Shown here in pieces: positions 55,596-64,000 of a stretch of DNA of 64,000 nt. Each line of letters opens with the position of its first letter. Position 1 is the stretch's first letter. Where the stretch lies: the NCBI GenBank assembly GCA_046051185.1, contig JBJOOT010000002.1, forward strand, positions 252 to 64,251, read 5' to 3'. A program made the translations under genes and the position numbers. Source of the DNA: Pseudomonadota bacterium (GTDB lineage: Bacteria; Pseudomonadota; Gammaproteobacteria; Thiotrichales; Thiotrichaceae). The notes under the pieces are model-generated. The model was given only the letters and a program-made list of their open reading frames with translations, did not search any database and had not been told where the DNA came from.

Positions 55596-55690
55596 TCTAG
55601 ATACAGATTAGCTTCTCATCAGTGTGACGATACAGTTTAATGCTATGATAGCAATTTGTTCTCGATTGGGACTAGCAGAAGACCATAATC

Positions 55691-57076
55691 ATGTTTGAAA
55701 ATTTAAGTGATCGTCTTTCGAAAACGGTAAAAAAATTACGTGGGCAAGCACGGTTAACCGATGAAAATATAAAAGATGCCTTGCGTGATGTGCGCATGGC
55801 TTTGTTGGAAGCCGATGTGGCTCTGCCAGTGGTGCGTGATTTTATTAATCGCATCCGTGAGCGTGCGGTTGGGCAAGAAGTTTTAGAAAGTTTAACTCCC
55901 GGTCAAGCTTTGATTAAAGTCGTTCATGAAGAACTGATTGAAATCATGGGGCAGGCTAATACCGGCTTAAATTTGAATACTCAACCGCCTGCAGTGATTT
56001 TAATGGCGGGTTTGCAAGGGGCAGGGAAGACTACAACTGTCGGTAAACTGACGCGCTTCTTAAAAGAAAAAAGTAAAAAGACCGTGATGGTCGCAAGTTG
56101 TGACATTTATCGTCCTGCTGCCATTAAACAATTAGAAACTATTGCGCAGCAAACGGAAGCGATCTTTTTTCCTAGTGAGCCTAATCAAAAACCGTCTGAG
56201 ATCGCTTTAGCAGCACTCGCGCAAGCTAAGCGCCAGTATATGGATGTGCTGATTATTGATACCGCCGGACGGCTGCATATTGATGCTGAAATGATGGATG
56301 AAATCAGTCAGCTGCATAAATTGTTGAATCCGGTTGAAACCTTATTCGTCGTTGATAGCATGACAGGCCAAGATGCTGCCAACACGGCAAAAGCCTTTGG
56401 TGATGCTTTGCCTTTAACAGGGGTTGTACTCACTAAAACGGATGGGGATGCTCGTGGTGGGGCGGCTTTATCGGTACGCCATATCACCGGCAAGCCGATT
56501 AAATTCATGGGTGTGGGCGAAAAACTCGATGCACTAGAACCTTTCCATCCTGATCGTATGGCTTCGCGTATTTTAGGGATGGGAGATGTGCTCAGTTTGA
56601 TTGAGCAAGCTCAAACCAAAGTCGACCATGAGAAAGCGCAAAAGCTTGCCCGTAAGCTGAATAAAGGCAAAGGTTTTGATTTTGAAGATCTGCGCGATCA
56701 AATGAATCAAATGTTAAAAATGGGAGGCATGAGTAGTTTGCTGGATAAATTACCCGGAATGGGGGCTATGCCCGCCCATATCAAAGATCAGGCTAATGAC
56801 AAAGAAATTCGCCGCATGATTGCAATTATTAACTCGATGACTCTTGAAGAGCGCCGTAATCCTGAGGTCATTAAATCTTCACGTAAGCGTCGGATTGCAG
56901 CTGGTTGTGGTTTACAAGTACAAGATGTTAATCGTCTGCTCAAGCAACAGCAGCAGATGAGTAAGGCTATGAAGCAGTTTTCAAAAGGGGGGATGCGTAA
57001 GCTGATGCAAACCATGAAAGGTAAGTTGCCAACAGGTGGAGGCTTTCCTCCGATGGGGGGAGGATTTCCGGGGTAA
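55691..57076 (+). CDS. ffh: Signal recognition particle protein Ffh
   Basis: MFENLSDRL, GLQGAGKTT, DTAGR, DGDARGGAALS, Met-rich M domain. Confidence 0.98.
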   Translation: MFENLSDRLSKTVKKLRGQARLTDENIKDALRDVRMALLEADVALPVVRDFINRIRERAVGQEVLESLTPGQALIKVVHEELIEIMGQANTGLNLNTQPPAVILMAGLQGAGKTTTVGKLTRFLKEKSKKTVMVASCDIYRPAAIKQLETIAQQTEAIFFPSEPNQKPSEIALAALAQAKRQYMDVLIIDTAGRLHIDAEMMDEISQLHKLLNPVETLFVVDSMTGQDAANTAKAFGDALPLTGVVLTKTDGDARGGAALSVRHITGKPIKFMGVGEKLDALEPFHPDRMASRILGMGDVLSLIEQAQTKVDHEKAQKLARKLNKGKGFDFEDLRDQMNQMLKMGGMSSLLDKLPGMGAMPAHIKDQANDKEIRRMIAIINSMTLEERRNPEVIKSSRKRRIAAGCGLQVQDVNRLLKQQQQMSKAMKQFSKGGMRKLMQTMKGKLPTGGGFPPMGGGFPG

Positions 57077-57114
57077 AAATTTGTGTTTTCCATGGAAATT
57101 CATGGCTTGAACTG

Positions 57115-57143
57115 TTTACCTGCTGGATACTGAGCGGTATGAT
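57115..57143 (+). promoter_or_regulatory. Putative sigma70 promoter of lipoprotein 1
   Basis: TTTACC-17 bp-TATGAT, followed directly by an inverted repeat (57143-57169). Confidence 0.4.
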
Positions 57144-57326
57144 TTGGTTGTGCGAAAGTTACAACTAAATTCTTGGGTTTGTTGGCTTTTAGCAACATTT
57201 AGGGCTGAATGTTGGGCATATTCATACAAACATTCTGCTGAGCCATTACGTCGATCAATGATTAGAAGGTGGGTTCACGTCTAGTCGTTGCTGCTTTACA
57301 CTTAACAACGAAAGAGATTAAAGGCC

Positions 57327-57869
57327 ATGAAAATCAAGACTCCGTATACTTTAGCGGCGATCTTTGCAGTTAGTATGTTTGCTTCTGGTTGTAGTCAAAT
57401 GGCTGCACAACAAGCTGCACCTGCTCCTGAGGCTAAGCCTAGCGAGCCAGTAACTGTTGTGGATTGCAGCAAATGTAAGAAACCTGCTCCGGCGCCTGTA
57501 GGTGGTGCACATACGCATCCAGCGATTCCGGGTTGCACCGATTCTACCACTCATACACATCCGTTTACGAATGCTAACCATAAGCATGCGTATAGCTGCA
57601 AAGGTGGAGCGAAGAAAAAGCCTTTACCACCTATGAAAACAAAACCTGCTAAACCAGTGGTGGATAAGTGGGCGCATACCCATCCTGCAATTCCAGGTTG
57701 TACCGATTCTATTACCCATACCCATCCTTATAACAATGCGAACCATAGCCATCATTACAGCTGCAAAGGTGGTAAGATTGATGTTGTAGTACCACCAGTA
57801 AAGGCGAAGGGCAATTATAAAGGCCCAGTGCAAATTGATGCTGGCGTGATGAAAACTTACAAAAAGTAA
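57327..57869 (+). CDS. Small Pro-rich lipoprotein 1 (DCSKC, two His/Cys repeats, conserved C-terminal motif)
   Basis: Lipobox FASG-C22; repeats at aa 61-93 and 116-148; ends VPPVKAKGNYKGPVQIDAGVMKTYKK. Confidence 0.85.
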   Translation: MKIKTPYTLAAIFAVSMFASGCSQMAAQQAAPAPEAKPSEPVTVVDCSKCKKPAPAPVGGAHTHPAIPGCTDSTTHTHPFTNANHKHAYSCKGGAKKKPLPPMKTKPAKPVVDKWAHTHPAIPGCTDSITHTHPYNNANHSHHYSCKGGKIDVVVPPVKAKGNYKGPVQIDAGVMKTYKK

Positions 57870-57930
57870 TGAGGAAGGTGTTTTTTGAGTTGCAGTTTAA
57901 GGCTGTGATTCAATAAAATCGACTCAAACA

Positions 57931-57962
57931 GCCCGATCTCGTAAGAAATCGGGCGTTTTTTA
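57931..57962 (+). terminator. Intrinsic terminator after lipoprotein 1
   Basis: gcccgatctc-gtaa-gaaatcgggc followed by gtttttt. Confidence 0.8.
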
Positions 57963-58078
57963 TTAGTAATTATTTTTTCTTATAAAGCGGTTAAATTTGA
58001 TATTGTTGTAGATAATCAGTTACTGTTGCGTTTTTGCCTCTCAACCGTAGTTGTTCTTCTCGTATAAGCATAGAAGTC

Positions 58079-59317
58079 ATGGATAAAATTAAAGCGTTAT
58101 TACTACTAGCGGTCTGGATCTGTTTAGCACCTTTAAGTTCAGTCTATGCGGCTGTTTGGAGTACAGAGTCTCAATGGGACGAGTCTTGGGAAAATCGTTA
58201 TCGCCAGTGGGTGGTTCAAAACTGGAAGGATGATATCTTCATGAACCCAGCTAAGCCGATATATTATAAGTTTGAAAATGATTGTGCTGATGCAACCTAC
58301 ATGATGCGTTTGATCTTCTCATTTGAGCATCGTTTGCCCTTTGCAGTGAATAATCAGCAAAGCCCGGGCAAAGTTATTAGTAATGAGATGAGTACTTGGG
58401 ATAACTTGCCTGAACCTCAGCGAGTTCGTCGCTTTATGGATTATGTCGCAGATATGACCAGTACTAAATCATTAAGACAAGACACTTATCCTGTTGCACT
58501 GAATGATATTAAGGCCGGTGATGTTTATGTAGCGCCCGGTGTACACTCTTATCAAATCGTTGAAGTAACTGAGACAGGGATTGCCGAAGTAATGGCTTCT
58601 ACTACGCCAAAGACTTCACGCTTTTTATTGCGCACGCCTTCCTTCCCCTTTTATGTACCAGAAGATAAGACCTTTGCTGATGGCTATCGTCGCTTTAAGC
58701 AACCCCAAAATATTCGTCAACCTGCTAGTGCACAGCCGGGGTATAGTGAAGAACAATTCCTATTAGCAGCTGATCTGAAATATGATTATGTAGCCTTTAC
58801 CGATATTATTTCTAAGAAGCTAGGCAAACGTGCAGAGCGTCCTGATGAAAAAACTACCCGTTTATTGTTAGCACTTTGCATGTCGGCCAATGATCGTAGC
58901 GTTTATGTTTATGATGCTTTATGGCATTTACAAGAAATTCGTAAAACCGGTCGTCAATGTATGAATGCTAAAGAATATGATGATCATTCTACGCCTGGCC
59001 GTGATAAGCGCTTAGGTATGTTCTTTAGTTCTATTCGTCATCATTTAGATCGGATTGGACGTTTTGATCCGCAATCACAACCTGCGCGTTGGGCAAAAGC
59101 GGTGTTTTCGATTGATGAGCCACCTGCAGGCGAAATGAAGCATTTGAATGATTTTTGTATGGTGCAAATGACCTTAGGCGAAGAACTCTATATGAGTTTG
59201 CGAGAATTGCGTAAAAATTTAGAGGGTGGCTATTTAGTATCCGATCCTCATGCACCTTTACAATATCGTTGGGGTATCGTAAAGACACCTTATCAAGCCA
59301 CTTGCCCTACTTATTGA
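58079..59317 (+). CDS. Secreted protein of unknown function with papain/NlpC-P60-like Cys...His signature; likely start MDKIK
   Basis: Signal peptide ending VYA-A; NDCAD, IKAGDVY, GVHSY in the order expected for NlpC/P60-like folds. Confidence 0.6.
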   Translation: MDKIKALLLLAVWICLAPLSSVYAAVWSTESQWDESWENRYRQWVVQNWKDDIFMNPAKPIYYKFENDCADATYMMRLIFSFEHRLPFAVNNQQSPGKVISNEMSTWDNLPEPQRVRRFMDYVADMTSTKSLRQDTYPVALNDIKAGDVYVAPGVHSYQIVEVTETGIAEVMASTTPKTSRFLLRTPSFPFYVPEDKTFADGYRRFKQPQNIRQPASAQPGYSEEQFLLAADLKYDYVAFTDIISKKLGKRAERPDEKTTRLLLALCMSANDRSVYVYDALWHLQEIRKTGRQCMNAKEYDDHSTPGRDKRLGMFFSSIRHHLDRIGRFDPQSQPARWAKAVFSIDEPPAGEMKHLNDFCMVQMTLGEELYMSLRELRKNLEGGYLVSDPHAPLQYRWGIVKTPYQATCPTY

Positions 59318-59432
59318 TCATTTGGGCCAGTTGTTGTAAAAAAGTCAGGGTAATTGTTTTATCTGACCAACAATTTTGAATATACTAAGAGAACCTTGTT
59401 CCCTAATTAACGTTATATAGAGACCGAAGACT

Positions 59433-59810
59433 ATGAAGATGAAAGCTCAACTCTCACTCGCTGCAGTCATTATGGCTGGTTTGTTAGCATCTGGCTGTAG
59501 CCAAATGAGTGCTCAACAAGTAGTAGAGCCACCACCTGCACCTGCTCCTGATAAAGTAGTATTGGATTGCAGTAAATGTGGTCCTGCACCTGTTGTTGTG
59601 AAGCCACGTCCAGTTGTAAAACCACGTCCAGTTGTGCGCCCACGCCCAGTTGTAAAACCACGTCCACAACCACCTGTTGTGGTTAGACCGCAACCACGTC
59701 CTCCAGTCGTTGTTGTTCCACCGATTAAAGTACCACCTGTCAAGGCTAAAGGTACTTATCGTGGTAAGATCCAAATTGATCAAGGCGTGATGAAGCAATA
59801 TCAACAGTAA
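59433..59810 (+). CDS. Small Pro/Arg/Val-rich lipoprotein 2
   Basis: Lipobox LASG-C22; DCSKC; (VV[KR]PRP)x4; ends VPPVKAKGTYRGKIQIDQGVMKQYQQ. Confidence 0.85.
   Translation: MKMKAQLSLAAVIMAGLLASGCSQMSAQQVVEPPPAPAPDKVVLDCSKCGPAPVVVKPRPVVKPRPVVRPRPVVKPRPQPPVVVRPQPRPPVVVVPPIKVPPVKAKGTYRGKIQIDQGVMKQYQQ
59595..59666 (+). repeat. 18-bp coding tandem repeat x4 (VV[KR]PRP)
   Basis: gttgtgaagccacgtcca / gttgtaaaaccacgtcca / gttgtgcgcccacgccca / gttgtaaaaccacgtcca. Confidence 0.9.
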
Positions 59811-59858
59811 TCAAGTTTGTGGTTAAGCGCTTGTAGCTAAATCACAACAAAACTGTTA

Positions 59859-59895
59859 AGCCCTTTACTTTGCAAAGAGTAAGGGGCTCTTTTTA
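59859..59895 (+). terminator. Intrinsic terminator after lipoprotein 2
   Basis: agccctttact...agtaaggggct followed by cttttt. Confidence 0.75.
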
Positions 59896-60100
59896 TTTTT
59901 AAGCTTTAAGCACAGGGAAGCTAGCTAGAACAAGGCTTTAGCAGGGTTTGTCTGGATAATGCTCAGTATCAATACTAAATGATAAAAATCTAAAAAATGT
60001 CGTAAAAAAAACTCAAAAGATAAGTTTACAACCCGCAACTCTAAAAACTTTGACTATACTCGAGAGTGCGTTCCCTTAAACAACGAAAGAGACCACTATT

Positions 60101-60712
60101 ATGAAGATGAAAACCCAACTTTCTCTGGCTAGCATTTTCTTGGCAGGTTTAATAACTTCTGGCTGTAGTCAAATGATGGGTGCTCAGCAAGTCGCTCAAG
60201 CTGCTCCTGCGCCTACACCTGCACCGGGTAAAGTTATTACAATTACTGATTGCAGTAAATGTCCTCCACGCCCACGTCCAAGTGGTGGTGGCAAAAAACC
60301 AAGTGGCGGTAAAAAACCAAGTGGTGGTATGGGCGGTCGGCACTCTCATCCAGCGATTCCTGGGTGTACAAATTCCATAACTCATACTCATCCTTATACG
60401 AATTCACGTCATACGCATAAGTATAGTTGCAAAGGACGTAAAGCTACTCAGCGTCCAATCCAACGCCCTGTTCAAAGACCAGTGGTTGCTAATCGGTGGG
60501 CGCATACACATCCAGCGATTCCGGGTTGTACTAATTCGATAACACATACTCATCCATACAATAATCCGAATCACTCACATCACTACAGCTGCAGAGGGGG
60601 TCAACGCCCAGATCAGCCACAACAAATTATCGTTCCGCCTATCAAAGCAAAAGGTAATTTCAAAGGCCCGATCCAAATTGACCAAGGTACTTTGAAACCT
60701 TATCAGCAATAA
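60101..60712 (+). CDS. Small Pro-rich lipoprotein 3 (DCSKC, two His/Cys repeats, conserved C-terminal motif)
   Basis: Lipobox ITSG-C22; repeats at aa 81-112 and 135-166; ends VPPIKAKGNFKGPIQIDQGTLKPYQQ. Confidence 0.85.
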   Translation: MKMKTQLSLASIFLAGLITSGCSQMMGAQQVAQAAPAPTPAPGKVITITDCSKCPPRPRPSGGGKKPSGGKKPSGGMGGRHSHPAIPGCTNSITHTHPYTNSRHTHKYSCKGRKATQRPIQRPVQRPVVANRWAHTHPAIPGCTNSITHTHPYNNPNHSHHYSCRGGQRPDQPQQIIVPPIKAKGNFKGPIQIDQGTLKPYQQ

Positions 60713-60757
60713 GTTTTGAGAGGGTTTGCTAAGTCAGTATAAAACTAGCAAGCTGTC

Positions 60758-60789
60758 AGACGTCCATCTTAATAGCATGGACGTCTTTG
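60758..60789 (+). terminator. Hairpin/terminator after lipoprotein 3
   Basis: agacgtccat...atggacgtct followed by ttg. Confidence 0.65.
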
Positions 60790-60942
60790 CCGTTTATCTA
60801 GTCGTCATTTCGCAATTGCCTAAAATTTTATTGGTTAAGCTGTCATTAGGGTGGGTCTGAGCATAGTAAGACTGTCTGCAATGGGCTTTAAATACTCATC
60901 GTATTTTTAATAACAATAAGTTTGAAATAGAGGCAAACAATA

Positions 60943-61260
60943 ATGAAAATTAATAATCGGCATGTAGCAATGGCTATTTTGATTGCGGGCTTGGCCGCAG
61001 CAGGCTGTAGCCAACAACAAGCAGCGCCGCCAGTTGAAACTGTTCCAGAGCCAGTTGTTGAAGTTCCTCAACCAGAACCTGTGCCTGTGATTGAAGAGCC
61101 AGCACCTCCTCCAGTCGTACAACCTGTACCACGTCCACAACCACGTCCTGTGCGTCCTATACAGCGTCCACCTGTTAAAGTACCTCCTGTTAAAGCTAAA
61201 GGTACTTATCGCGGTGCAGTACAAATTGATCGTGGTGCTATGCAGCAGTATCAATACTAA
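60943..61260 (+). CDS. Small Pro-rich lipoprotein 4
   Basis: RBS gagg; lipobox AAAG-C22; acidic EP/VP stretch then basic RP stretch; ends VPPVKAKGTYRGAVQIDRGAMQQYQY. Confidence 0.85.
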   Translation: MKINNRHVAMAILIAGLAAAGCSQQQAAPPVETVPEPVVEVPQPEPVPVIEEPAPPPVVQPVPRPQPRPVRPIQRPPVKVPPVKAKGTYRGAVQIDRGAMQQYQY

Positions 61261-61266
61261 TCAGTG

Positions 61267-61301
61267 GGCATGGTTAGGCTGACTGTCTAGCCATGCCTTC
61301 T
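61267..61301 (+). terminator. Hairpin/terminator after lipoprotein 4
   Basis: ggcatggttagg...tctagccatgcc followed by ttct. Confidence 0.65.
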
Positions 61302-61477
61302 AAAGATAATTAAAGTATAACCGTTTGAATTTTCAGAGTTTTGTTTTATTAAACCCCTAGCATTAAAAAGTTAATGTGGTTGACGCTAGTATTTCCTAGA
61401 TATTTATTATAAAACTACATGCGCACCGGCTGGGGAAGTGCGTTTCTTATAGACTATTTATTCCTTTGGGTGGAGTT

Positions 61478-62410
61478 ATGGCGAGCTCTTTTATTGATAA
61501 AGATTTAAAAAGAAAGTTTAGTTTGTTGGTCTACGCGAGCACTTTGATGGTAATGGCCAATTTGACAGGTTGCTCCACGAATACAGTAGATACCAGCGTC
61601 GAACCGGCCAGTCCGCAAAAATTAGCAACGAATGAGCAAAAAACATCAATTAAAATTATTCAAAGAAATAATGCTCAAAATAATGTGCAGCGCGGTAAAG
61701 ATAAACATCAGTTAGAATATGAGCAAAAACAACGTTGGTATCATCAACAATGGGAATTGACTCAGCAGATTAATCAACAAAGGCAAAGAGCTCAAGCTCA
61801 AGCCGCTTGGCAAGTACAACGTTCTCAGCGTGTTGTGAATGCTGATTATTCTGAGCGTCTTGCACAAGCAGCCATAGATCGCTTGCGCTATCGGGTTAAT
61901 TACAATGGCGCTTATATTCCGATTGCTTATCCCAATGGCGATGTCCCATCGAATATTGGGGTTTGTACCGATACAGTGATCCGTTCTTATCGGCGCTTAG
62001 GTGTCGATTTGCAGCGCTTAGTACATGAAGATATTTCGCGTGCTTTTTATTCTTATCCAAATCTTCCCAAATGGGGTTTGCAAGGGCCGGATACCAATAT
62101 TGATCATCGACGTGTCCATAATTTAAAAGTCTTCTTTACTCGTCATGGTCAGCGTTTACCCGTAACAGGTAATCCAAGTGATTATCGTCCGGGCGATTTG
62201 GTGACATGGAGCTTAGGCGGTGATCAAGAGCATATTGGTATTGTCGTTGATCAACGCTCAGTAGTTGACCCACGCCGTTTTATGATTGTGCATAATATTG
62301 GCGAAGGGGAGAAAATGGAGGATATTCTCTTTAAGATGCCAATTACAGGGCATTATCGCTATTTCCCCGGTTCACGTCGCCCACAGCTGACTTACGCACA
62401 ACAGTATTAA
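61478..62410 (+). CDS. DUF1287 (YijF-like) lipoprotein with Gln-rich N-terminal extension
   Basis: GGAG RBS before ATG 61478; lipobox LTG-C; YPNGDVP..GVCTD, DTNIDHRRV.NL, PGDLV, HIGIV, HNIG. Confidence 0.82.
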   Translation: MASSFIDKDLKRKFSLLVYASTLMVMANLTGCSTNTVDTSVEPASPQKLATNEQKTSIKIIQRNNAQNNVQRGKDKHQLEYEQKQRWYHQQWELTQQINQQRQRAQAQAAWQVQRSQRVVNADYSERLAQAAIDRLRYRVNYNGAYIPIAYPNGDVPSNIGVCTDTVIRSYRRLGVDLQRLVHEDISRAFYSYPNLPKWGLQGPDTNIDHRRVHNLKVFFTRHGQRLPVTGNPSDYRPGDLVTWSLGGDQEHIGIVVDQRSVVDPRRFMIVHNIGEGEKMEDILFKMPITGHYRYFPGSRRPQLTYAQQY

Positions 62411-62484
62411 GTGTCTTAATGGCTTTTTAGTTAAACCTCAAGCAAGCTTGGGGTTTAGTGATCGGTTTATTTGTCAATACCCTC

Positions 62485-62512
62485 TTCACATTTCTCAAAA
62501 AAACCGTACAAT
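62485..62512 (+). promoter_or_regulatory. Putative rpsP operon promoter
   Basis: TTCACA-16 bp-TACAAT followed by GC-rich discriminator tgcgcg. Confidence 0.55.
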
Positions 62513-62576
62513 TGCGCGTTTACTTTTGGCATAGCTTTGCCAAGGGTTATTTGAATTTAACTAAGGTTTTGGATTT

Positions 62577-62828
62577 ATGGTCAATATTCGTCTGGCTCGT
62601 GGTGGTTCTAAAAAGAATCCATTCTATAGCATCGTAGTCACTGATAAGCGCAAGCCGCGTGACAGTGGTTATATTGAGCGTGTCGGCTTCTTCAACCCAG
62701 TCGCTCGTGGTCAAGAAATCCGCTTACATCTTGAGCAAGAGCGCGTGCAATATTGGTTATCTAAAGGTGCTCAACCCAGTGACCGTGTTGCAAAGTTATT
62801 GAGCGAGTCTGCTAAAGCAGCTGCTTAA
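62577..62828 (+). CDS. rpsP: 30S ribosomal protein S16
   Basis: [34 protein letters not shown]. Confidence 0.98.
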
Positions 62829-62838
62829 TTAGATTAGT

Positions 62839-63357
62839 TTGATGCAAGCTCAGCCAGATTCCATGATTGTACTCGGTAAAATTACCGGTGCTTTTGGGGT
62901 TAAAGGTTGGGTAAAGATCCATTCTTATACTGCAAAAATGGCGGATATTTTTAATTATCAGCCCTTATATTTGAGTATTAATAAAGAATGGAAAGTAGTT
63001 AAGCTAGTTAGCTATCAAGTACAAGCGAAAGGCTTAGTGGCTCAATTTGAGTCTATACAAGATCGTGACCTTGCTCTAAAGCTTGCGGGTACAGAAATTG
63101 CGGTATCACGTAGTCAGTTGCCAAGCTTAGAGGCGGGTGAGTATTACTGGTCGGACCTTGAAGGTTTAACAGTAGTTACTATAAACGGTGTGGTATTAGG
63201 TCAAGTTGATCATTTACTGGAAACCGGTGCTAATGATGTTTTGGTGGTAAAACATGCCACAGGTGAGCATTGGTTGCCTTGGGTCATGGATAAAGTCATT
63301 CAGCGGGTTGATTTAACCACGGGTTTGATTGAAGTCGATTGGGATCCTGATTTTTGA
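62839..63357 (+). CDS. rimM: Ribosome maturation factor RimM; start may be ATG 62842
   Basis: [38 protein letters not shown]. Confidence 0.96.
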
Positions 63358-63364
63358 GCTTAAC

Positions 63365-64000
63365 ATGCAGTTTGCAGTACTGACCTTATTTCCCGAGTTG
63401 GTACAGGCGGTAGCACAACATGGCATTATCCGCCGTGCTGTGGAGCAGCAAGCTATTAGTCTTGCTTGTTATAATCTGCGTGATTATACAACCGATATTC
63501 ATCGTACCGTTGATGACCGTCCTTATGGTGGTGGTCCGGGCATGGTGATGAAGCCTGACTGTTTATTGCGAAGCATTCGTGATGTTCGGCAGCAGCATGC
63601 AGGTCGGCTTATTTATCTAAGCCCACAAGGTTCGCCTTTAACGCAAGCTAAAGTGCAAGCATTTGCACAAGAGTCTGGGTTAATTTTATTGTGTGGACGT
63701 TATGAAGGTATTGATGAACGCATTATTCAGCTTGAAGTCGATGAAGAATGCTCTATCGGTGACTATGTACTGAGTGGTGGTGAATTAGCGGCGATGGTAT
63801 TGATTGATAGTATCACCCGTTTATTACCCGGAGTACTTGGGCATGAAGATTCTGCTGAGCAAGATTCATTCGCAGAAGGTTTGTTAGATTGTCCACATTA
63901 TACGCGCCCTGAGTCGATTGCAGGTTTAGAAGTACCTGCGATTCTTAAAAGTGGCAACCATGCCGTGATTGCTCGCTGGCGTAAAAAGCAAATGTTAGGC
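63365..64000 (+). CDS. trmD: tRNA (m1G37) methyltransferase TrmD, 3'-truncated by the window edge
   Basis: Manual translation: [11 protein letters not shown]...[13 protein letters not shown]...YLSPQG...[10 protein letters not shown]...[11 protein letters not shown]...HYTRP. Confidence 0.96.

Follow-up and report, generated by a model that had tools for sequence, protein, structure and literature searches.

A C-terminal tail on Thiothrix-group lipoproteins: a probable remnant of the PG_binding_1 domain with a putative role at the cell wall

Four small lipoproteins encoded in a 64,000-nucleotide stretch of Thiotrichaceae DNA (contig JBJOOT010000002.1; hereafter the window) end in a common 26-residue tail which, by comparison through orthologues and intermediate forms, is homologous to the core of the peptidoglycan-binding domain PG_binding_1 (PF01471). 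The tail is probably a cut-down remnant of this known domain rather than a novel signal for sorting or cross-linking, and there is about an even chance that it is a minimised, PG_binding_1-derived module for non-covalent association with peptidoglycan. Bacteria without Braun's lipoprotein (Lpp) need other links between outer membrane and wall, of which, to our knowledge, few have been described. The Thiothrix group consists of filamentous sulfur oxidisers that are important in activated-sludge bulking, and our results suggest that it could make such a link through a PG_binding_1 remnant of about 25 residues carried on lipoproteins whose genes lie with those of two uncharacterised NlpC/P60-like enzymes. 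A remnant that still binds peptidoglycan would show how little of PG_binding_1 suffices for binding and could serve as a very small wall-targeting tag; one that does not bind it would be a piece of a domain taken over for recognising a partner. Three families that lacked annotation also gain a functional context: the p412/DUF4846-like proteins, DUF1287 and the lipoproteins with His6/Cys2 repeats.

The four genes were confirmed as open reading frames of 105-203 codons, all on the + strand. Two encode His-type lipoproteins: lipoprotein 1 (57327..57869, 180 aa; tail at 57789-57866), which has a DCSKC motif and two His6/Cys2 repeats and whose orthologues in Thiothrix and Thiolinea are 72-99% identical, and lipoprotein 3 (60101..60712, 203 aa; tail at 60632-60709). 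The other two have extended spacers, Pro/Val-rich in lipoprotein 2 (59433..59810, 125 aa; 77-aa spacer, P+V = 56%; tail at 59730-59807) and Pro-rich in lipoprotein 4 (60943..61260, 105 aa; 57-aa spacer, Pro = 35%; tail at 61180-61257), the latter with a weak TonB polyproline match in the Pfam scan. Each has the features of an SPase II substrate, namely an MK.K... start, a hydrophobic stretch and a lipobox of the form [AT][SA]GC (ASGC, TSGC or AAGC) with the cysteine at residue 22 and serine at +2. The lipobox is kept in nearly all relatives, and the serine at +2 indicates that the lipoproteins are probably located in the outer membrane. Searches of all four against Pfam and NCBIfam returned noise only (TonB polyproline, PXPV and a PP0621 fragment).

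The tails align without gaps up to the stop codon, exactly as quoted by an earlier sequence-only reading of the window, with the consensus VPP[VI]KAKG..[KR]G.[VI]QID.G..... and with V-P-P, K-A-K-G, G, Q-I-D, G and the Y at -3 invariant. They are basic (+3 to +5), and the source genome contains these four copies only, even when a loose pattern is used. Several regularities claimed in that reading hold locally but not among relatives. The invariant positions are true of the four tails, but family-wide only K, K-G, G and Tyr are invariant, many members having MD, PIA or PIS in place of QID; the common end position shifts by 1-4 residues elsewhere (YKKQ, YQQK, YQQPTM); and the division into two subtypes (His-type with N[YF]KGP, short with TYRG) stands in the source genome but breaks down in relatives, where His-type proteins with TYRGP and short ones with NYRG occur. 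At the DNA level the four 78-nt tails share just 63-77% identity and differ by synonymous changes at 6-11 of their 26 codons. The four genes are old paralogues under purifying selection, which acts at the protein and not the DNA level. Because the tail DNAs have diverged and profile E-values reach 5e-15, their likeness reflects neither chance nor recent gene conversion.

A profile search with the tail among 1.84 billion proteins returned 40 clusters, with best E-values of 5e-15. The tail forms the extreme C-terminus in 40/40 of them, which bears out the proposal of a conserved, strictly C-terminal module on divergent lipoproteins. In a genome scan it was restricted to Thiothrix, Thiolinea and Thiofilum, and it is also borne by secreted proteins that are not lipoproteins. 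The order ffh, lipoproteins, a 412-aa enzyme (p412), lipoproteins, DUF1287 and rpsP is kept in at least 30 genomes, and this locus is specific to the Thiothrix-group lineage. In the window the inserted locus is bounded on the left by ffh (55691..57076, + strand; Pfam SRP54 on orthologous loci) and on the right by rpsP (62577..62828, + strand), with rimM and trmD next.

PG_binding_1 is a three-helix peptidoglycan-binding domain of about 57 residues. Neither the four lipoproteins nor 42 short and intermediate tails matched PF01471 even at E<=10, and when a short-tail profile was compared directly with a set of 27 independent PG_binding_1 domains, all taken from genomes of the same genus, the score was not significant (hhalign P 0.23). 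The relationship was found by way of six outgroup orthologues of the His-type lipoproteins (P0067, P0073, P0074, P0078, P0081 and P0034), whose N-terminal parts are homologous (E 1e-40 to 1e-22) and whose C-terminal tails, at the same position as the short tail, match PF01471 (best 8.8e-12) with the pattern ...LKAKGYYRGAIDGVVG.GTR.AL..Y.... These PG-type tails match independent same-genus PG_binding_1 domains (hhalign P 4e-12, 35 columns) as well as solved PG-binding domains (SleB, 5e-6; SltB3, 2e-4). The window-type profile in turn matches the PG-type tails over the KAKGxYxGxI core (P 8e-8) and two intermediate tail types (P 3e-14 and 4e-17), which themselves match the PG-type (P 5e-8 and 1e-6; 26-28 columns, reaching the terminal YQ). 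Since each step from short tail through intermediates and PG-type tails to PG_binding_1 is significant, these profile comparisons show that the tail is homologous to the PG_binding_1 core. The sequence-only reading had named a match to a known folded domain as what would overturn its view of the motif; such a relationship exists in part, as homology to a domain core through orthologues and intermediates.

Comparison with PG_binding_1 domains such as the N-terminal domain of SleB (PDB 4FET, 6TCI) and SltB3 (5ANZ) reveals a shared core, [KL]-x-x-G-[YF]-x-x-G-x-[IV]...[ALM]-x-x-[YF]-Q. We propose that the tail derives, by drastic shortening, from the domain's first two thirds and has kept KAKG from the final turn of helix 1, the G-[YF]-x-G-x-[IV] loop and, as ..Y-Q, the end of helix 2. 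It differs from PG_binding_1 in its length (22-26 versus about 57 residues), in the VPP that replaces helix 1, in having no helix 3, in a loop shorter by 2-5 residues, in giving no HMM match of its own when short and in standing always at the extreme C-terminus; the outgroup PG-type tails, too, end after helix 2. With helices 1 and 3 absent, the tail cannot form the three-helix fold, and the ancestral binding mechanism is therefore not assured. KAKGxYxGxI is far more strictly conserved in the tails than in ordinary PG_binding_1 domains, and at the place where ordinary domains have L..LG the PG-type outgroup, too, keeps KAKG strictly; what is being conserved may be contact with a partner and not with peptidoglycan. 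A time-ordered, stepwise shortening from 29 through 25-27 to 21-23 residues was not confirmed by the p412 tree: in the free tree the short-tail type is paraphyletic with the mid-length types nested, and an AU test does not reject the short tails as one clade (p 0.75).

Further evidence comes from Thiothrix proper, where second loci encode a secreted tail-bearing protein followed, in 9/10 loci, by a paralogue whose N-module is alike (52-79% identity with the query module; in locus L071 the two genes share 77%). Where the tail would be, the paralogue has an OmpA peptidoglycan-binding domain (PF00691, 3.9e-25). OmpA domains thus replace the tail in these paralogues, although at about 100 aa, with an alpha/beta fold, they are unrelated to it in fold and size and show no sequence similarity. 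Like Pal and OmpA, the tail would provide a non-covalent link between envelope protein and peptidoglycan, and like PG_binding_1 it would be an accessory wall-targeting module on envelope proteins; for the tail both roles are putative. The descent from PG_binding_1 and the exchange with OmpA domains together favour non-covalent over covalent binding.

From these observations we infer peptidoglycan binding, an outer-membrane location and a tether role. The tail would act as a small basic wall-association module at the C-terminus of lipoproteins anchored at their N-terminus. The short members would then be tethers, composed of a lipid anchor, a Pro/Val-rich extended spacer and a wall-binding tip, while the tail of the His-type members would keep their His/Cys-rich module, which probably binds metal, at the wall. 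No Lpp (PF04728) homologue was found in the source genome, whose assembly is 86% complete. The genome has 13 OmpA-family and four ordinary PG_binding_1 matches, which makes the need for a further tether less than obvious. A literature search on Thiothrix lipoproteins or peptidoglycan and on PG_binding_1 fragments returned nothing relevant.

Two enzyme candidates are encoded in the locus. p412 (58079..59317, + strand) is a secreted protein of 412 aa, with an NlpC/P60-like N-domain and a helical C-domain; its homologues begin at the ATG at 58079 and not at the TTG at 58034. An alignment of homologues has C69, G147-D148, H156 and E170 as invariant columns. In an AF2 model (pLDDT 86.5), residues 31-208 resemble at least 14 NlpC/P60 entries (VIA-align Z 5.7-7.4); the matches are peptidoglycan DL-endopeptidases and the PG-binding protein MagC, the best of all (Z 7.4), with no transglutaminase among the top 50. 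A weak DUF4846 match was also seen, and a Foldseek search of the PDB with the model found nothing at E<=0.001. The last gene of the locus (61466..62410, + strand) encodes a papain-like DUF1287 lipoprotein (PF06940, 6.6e-64) with further weak CHAP and NLPC_P60 matches. It is found at the same position in 33/36 ffh-carrying loci, the contigs of the other three (L057, L058 and L081) ending before it. PDB sequence searches with p412 and with the DUF1287 protein returned no match. DUF1287 has been placed in the NlpC/P60-CHAP-amidase group of papain-like enzymes, a fold common to transglutaminases as well (PMC10318531). By sequence and model, p412 and DUF1287 are candidates for NlpC/P60-like cell-wall enzymes.

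Docking to p412 is the main rival to wall binding. The tail, or the whole lipoprotein, would serve p412 and/or DUF1287 as a docking site, a regulator or a substrate, and its PG_binding_1 descent would be history rather than present function; we regard this as possible though unlikely. Outer-membrane lipoproteins are known to scaffold or activate wall enzymes, as do NlpI with MepS and LpoA/B with PBPs, and the present proteins resemble these and MagC in being lipoproteins whose linkers are long and flexible and whose genes lie next to those of NlpC/P60-type proteins. They have no sequence relationship to them, however, and the interaction here is indicated by gene neighbourhood and a weak complex prediction only. 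In every complete locus, and as a 62-63% identical homologue in two outgroup contigs, p412 is encoded directly beside a His-type lipoprotein; one of these contigs, from Endozoicomonadaceae, has a 62% identical copy next to a PG-type lipoprotein. The strictness of KAKGxYxGxI relative to ordinary PG_binding_1 domains also speaks for docking. A complex prediction of p412 with residues 45-180 of lipoprotein 1 scored 0.58 against 0.03 for the best control ('weak support'), with run agreement of at least 37% and a partner pLDDT of 37-40. In the tool's calibration the mark was reached by 58/80 solved complexes and 2/110 mismatched pairs, and at scores of 0.60 or below by 7/80 solved complexes and both mismatches; by that calibration a weak pass is more often wrong than right. 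As no interface was reported, the signal is not assignable to the tail as opposed to the His repeats. Moreover, the same tail occurs on short, non-His lipoproteins, and the tail proteins of the Thiothrix second loci pair with OmpA-domain paralogues with no p412 nearby. A related reading, which we consider distinctly unlikely, is that the tail is a self-sufficient linear tag that no longer has the ancestral fold and acts in a new manner: either the smallest known peptidoglycan-targeting peptide or a recognition or substrate peptide of p412/DUF1287. These enzymes would dock on it or link its invariant Lys, or its Gln-rich end, covalently to the wall or to one another, which, if true, would amount to Lpp-independent outer membrane-wall tethering in the filamentous Thiothrix group.

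Covalent attachment proper, in which an L,D-transpeptidase, as for Braun's lipoprotein, or a papain-fold enzyme with transglutaminase or transpeptidase activity would join one of the invariant KAKG lysines or the Gln-rich end to peptidoglycan or to another protein, seems decidedly improbable. The C-terminal Lys of Lpp is its link to mDAP, and lipoprotein 1 ends in YKK, comparable to the YRK of Lpp; both are small, N-terminally lipidated envelope proteins with a C-terminal end at the wall (putatively so for the tail). The four lipoproteins, however, have no sequence match to Lpp, which is a trimeric coiled coil, whereas their spacers are Pro-rich (30-35% Pro) or His-rich. Two invariant Lys and a Gln-rich terminus, a single YkuD L,D-transpeptidase in a genome where no Lpp was found, and two papain-fold enzymes in the locus, sharing their fold with transglutaminases (PMC10318531), are consistent with a covalent link. 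The terminal residue is nevertheless not conserved (K, Q, Y, N, R, M or E across the family), and YKK is extended to YKKQ or YKKP in the closest orthologues. What survives of the Braun analogy in the sequence-only reading is therefore cell-wall attachment and not the terminal-Lys link, and covalent linkage is not indicated. As to the transglutaminase-type cross-linking also suggested there, which keeps a small probability, the two papain-fold neighbours are conserved and the complex prediction for p412 gave weak support, but p412 resembles peptidoglycan peptidases (DL-endopeptidases) and MagC. An ancestor that binds non-covalently and the swap with OmpA domains likewise stand against it.

Least probable by far is a sorting or export signal, for surface exposure or secretion, or a polymerising donor strand; the sequence-only reading had offered a sorting signal and a donor strand among its options. 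The strictly C-terminal position and the lipoprotein nature of the carriers speak for this. Known signals (PEP-CTERM, GlyGly-CTERM, LPXTG, T9SS CTD) combine a motif, a hydrophobic helix and a basic cluster, or consist of a beta-sandwich CTD of ~80 aa; hydrophobic and transmembrane segments are lacking from the tail, no NCBIfam or Pfam sorting-signal model matches it, and it is present on secreted non-lipoproteins too. The donor strand of type V pilins is a C-terminal beta-strand completing the fold of the next subunit, but an AF2 model of lipoprotein 1 (57-sequence alignment; mean pLDDT 59) renders the tail as coil and a short helix, with no beta-strand, at pLDDT 52-58, too low to be informative on its fold. 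The relatives of the tail are, in addition, wall-binding domains. Turning to the genes themselves, RNA-library contigs from four studies span all four lipoprotein genes, but they are given no weight as evidence, since DNA carry-over is possible and contig depth cannot rank expression. The mean word depth of the contigs over lipoproteins 1-3 is higher than that of the ffh contigs.

Six genes, all on the + strand, lie between ffh (55691-57076) and rpsP (62577-62828). They encode lipoprotein 1 (57327-57869, 180 aa), the secreted 412-aa protein p412 (58079-59317), lipoproteins 2 (59433-59810, 125 aa), 3 (60101-60712, 203 aa) and 4 (60943-61260, 105 aa), and a DUF1287 lipoprotein (61466-62410); in homologues p412 starts at ATG 58079, not at the upstream TTG 58034. 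The sequence-only reading had described a common C-terminal tail of 26 residues on lipoproteins 1-4, and alignment of the four ORFs bore this out, without gaps to the stop codon. At the DNA level the tails are 63-77% identical, with synonymous codon differences at 6-11 of 26 positions, so that the conservation reflects selection on the peptide, and neither gene conversion nor a recent duplication. The assembly as a whole (3.53 Mb, 86% complete) was also searched with a loose pattern and has no further copy. Within 55600-63400, RNA-library contigs from four independent studies, of bioreactors, wastewater and freshwater, span the genes of all four lipoproteins at ≥95% identity. In all four RNA runs the mean word depth was higher for contigs over lipoproteins 1-3 than for those over ffh, which at most hints at high expression.

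Two word-index searches returned about 84 relatives, every one of them named Thiothrix, Thiolinea or Thiotrichaceae, and in addition one Endozoicomonadaceae protein. When 1.84 billion representative proteins were searched with a profile of 33 short tails, no more than 40 clusters scored at E≤1e-3 (best 5e-15); in every one of them the match stopped within three residues of the protein's C-terminal residue. Scanning 185,579 species genomes yielded 45 loci, the best being that of Thiothrix eikelboomii ATCC 49788, whose p412 is 98% identical to the one studied here. All named loci belong to Thiothrix, Thiolinea, Thiofilum or Thiotrichaceae; besides these, a few bear no label beyond Gammaproteobacteria or Proteobacteria. 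The order ffh, 1-3 tail lipoproteins, p412, 0-3 tail lipoproteins, DUF1287, rpsP is kept in 33 of the 36 loci that carry ffh, and the other three end at a contig end, leaving the order incomplete. The position of the matches, their taxonomic spread and the kept gene order together identify the tail as a lineage-specific, strictly C-terminal module in a conserved locus. The proposed division into two tail subtypes stands within this genome but dissolves among the tails of relatives; family-wide, only K, K-G, G and a Tyr near the end are invariant.

Each of the four small proteins starts with a basic n-region, then has a hydrophobic stretch and a lipobox whose Cys22 is followed by Ser-Gln; what comes next differs. 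The His-type lipoproteins 1 and 3 each carry two His6/Cys2 repeats (regions 57507-57740 and 57672-57780 in lipoprotein 1, 60340-60600 in lipoprotein 3), whereas the spacers of lipoproteins 2 and 4 consist of 30-35% Pro and 56% Pro+Val. The repeat spans about 31 aa (H.HPAIPGCT.S.TH.HP..N..H.H.YSC) and occurs in 1-4 copies in relatives; its H, P, C and Y positions are near-invariant in 57 sequences, each copy is a beta-hairpin in the AF2 model (pLDDT about 70), and no Pfam family corresponds to it. It is probably a metal-binding module. About 25 residues past the lipid-anchor Cys, lipoproteins 1-3 also have a DCSKC (CxxC) motif (57462-57476, 59559-59573 and 60246-60260) that is kept in most relatives and absent from lipoprotein 4.

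The tail has no entry in Pfam or NCBIfam and is not recognized by the models of either, and a literature search gave no paper on it. Its likely origin emerged from six relatives of the His-type lipoproteins outside the Thiothrix group. These are homologous in the N-terminal part (E 1e-40 to 1e-22) and end in ...ALQRKLKAKGYYRGAIDGVVG.GTR.AL..Y.QNR, an ending that matches PG_binding_1 (PF01471, best 8.8e-12), an alignment of 27 independent same-genus PG_binding_1 domains (hhalign P 4e-12, columns 4-38 of 57) and the solved peptidoglycan-binding domains of SleB (6TCI, 4FET; 5e-6) and SltB3 (5ANZ; 2e-4). The decapeptide KAKGxYxGx[IV] and the terminal ..Y.Q are common to these PG-type endings and the tails in the window. 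Two intermediate types are found, one in Thiothrix proper (KAKGNYKGPV.MD.[AS]S....MQQYQK, 25-26 residues from KAKG) and one in Thiofilum (KAKGNYKGPVVLTPATREAIMQMQDE), where a T..A helix-2 cap is still visible. In profile-profile comparisons the short tail matches both intermediates (P 3e-14 and 4e-17), the intermediates match the PG-type across 26-28 columns up to the end (P 5e-8 and 1e-6), and the short tail matches the PG-type across 13 columns (P 8e-8); compared directly with independent PG_binding_1 domains, the short tail gave no significant match (P 0.23). We conclude from these profiles that the tail is homologous to the portion of PG_binding_1 that runs from the end of helix 1 through the loop and helix 2, and we consider descent from that family highly probable. 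In the tail, VPP stands in for helix 1, the loop is shorter by 2-5 residues and there is no helix 3, so that it is too reduced for fold membership; the outgroup PG-type tails also end after helix 2, and the AF2 model of the tail shows nothing but coil and a short helix at the end (pLDDT 52-58). By descent the tail belongs with PG_binding_1 but it fails the HMM and fold tests for the family, and it is best regarded as a strongly reduced, novel form of a PG_binding_1-type module. With the p412 tree as a proxy for locus history, PG-type loci form the outgroup and the mid-length types one clade. The short type may be a clade or a grade alike under this tree, and evolution from long to short is therefore the more economical reading rather than a proven stepwise series.

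Independent evidence of a wall-associated role comes first from a second locus in Thiothrix proper, missing from the genome studied here, which encodes a secreted, non-lipobox protein of 83-161 aa ending in the tail. In one such locus (L071:5758-6952) the next gene is a paralogue whose signal peptide and N-module (DGKY.QNSDGQAVKNSVE.TC...GSMPEGC, then a Pro-rich linker) are 77% identical to those of the tail-bearing protein; past the same linker, an OmpA-family peptidoglycan-binding domain (PF00691, 3.9e-25) takes the place of the tail. Such pairs occur in 9 of 10 second loci (also L046, L048, L059, L062, L068, L070, L074 and L077).

In Escherichia coli, Ser at position +2 directs lipoproteins to the outer membrane. 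By this rule lipoproteins 1-4 would be sorted to the outer membrane. An extended middle, rich in Pro/Val or His/Cys, joins the lipobox to the basic tail, which would touch peptidoglycan non-covalently; we propose that the tail has a role like that of the ends by which Pal, OmpA or Lpp bind the wall. We put the chance that the tail binds the wall at about even. Given such contact, lipoproteins 2 and 4 would serve simply to tether the outer membrane to the wall or as spacers between the two, and lipoproteins 1 and 3 would place the probable metal-binding module at the wall, possibly together with p412. No Lpp homologue was found in this genome (86% complete), which has one YkuD transpeptidase, 13 OmpA-family matches and four ordinary PG_binding_1 matches.

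Further evidence of a wall-associated role comes from the two neighbouring enzymes. The p412 model is confidently folded (pLDDT 86.5), with an NlpC/P60-like N-domain and a helical C-domain. Foldseek against the PDB returned no match for it at E≤0.001; with an exhaustive structural aligner, residues 31-208 matched NlpC/P60 entries, at least 14 of them, including MagC (Z 7.4, 131 aligned), a gamma-D-Glu-L-diamino-acid endopeptidase (Z 7.1), LytE, CwlO, MepS, RipA/B and SagA. These are middling Z values, but the matches point consistently to one family. Cys69 lies at a helix start and, with the G147-D148 motif, His156 and Glu170, is invariant in 37 sequences; overall conservation is very strong (59-93% identity among 283 proteins, none of them named). 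A weak Pfam match is to DUF4846, rated NlpC/P60-like because of its GD motif in a survey of papain-like enzymes (PMC10318531), which also assigns DUF1287 to the NlpC/P60-CHAP-amidase group. The DUF1287 protein itself has weak CHAP and NLPC_P60 matches. It is also a lipoprotein (LTGC), in which a stalk of about 85 aa, rich in Gln, Asn and Arg, precedes the catalytic domain, and it ends in ...YAQQY, loosely like the tail end. The six-gene locus unites putatively wall-targeted lipoproteins with two uncharacterized NlpC/P60-like enzymes; this Thiothrix-group-specific envelope module between ffh and rpsP is a more interesting unit than the tail.

The main rival to wall binding is docking on p412 or the DUF1287 protein, either by the tail or by the His repeats. 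The genes for p412 and a His-type lipoprotein adjoin even in two outgroup contigs (p412 62-63% identical), and one complex prediction, of p412 residues 25-412 with residues 45-180 of lipoprotein 1, was rated 'weak support' (score 0.58, best control 0.03). In the calibration of the tool, 58 of 80 solved complexes and 2 of 110 mismatches attained that mark, but at ≤0.60 just 7 of the 80 and both mismatches did, so that such a score misleads more often than not when the pairing had little prior likelihood; the runs agreed to at least 37%, and the partner had a pLDDT of 37-40. Since the interface is missing from the output, the result is not attributable to the tail. A possible alternative is that the tail is attached covalently, in a Braun-like or transglutaminase-like way, with the invariant lysines as candidate sites; this is disfavored by the variable terminal residue and by structural matches that are peptidase-like, not transglutaminase-like. 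The suggestions that the tail is a sorting signal or a donor strand found no support. As for the pairing of p412 with a His-type lipoprotein, PG-type versions lie beside metG or lptD-surA instead of ffh/rpsP in Endozoicomonadaceae-like and other gammaproteobacterial contigs (L007:1006-3198 and L082:6001-8065), and these differing neighbors mark the pair as a mobile, conserved core.
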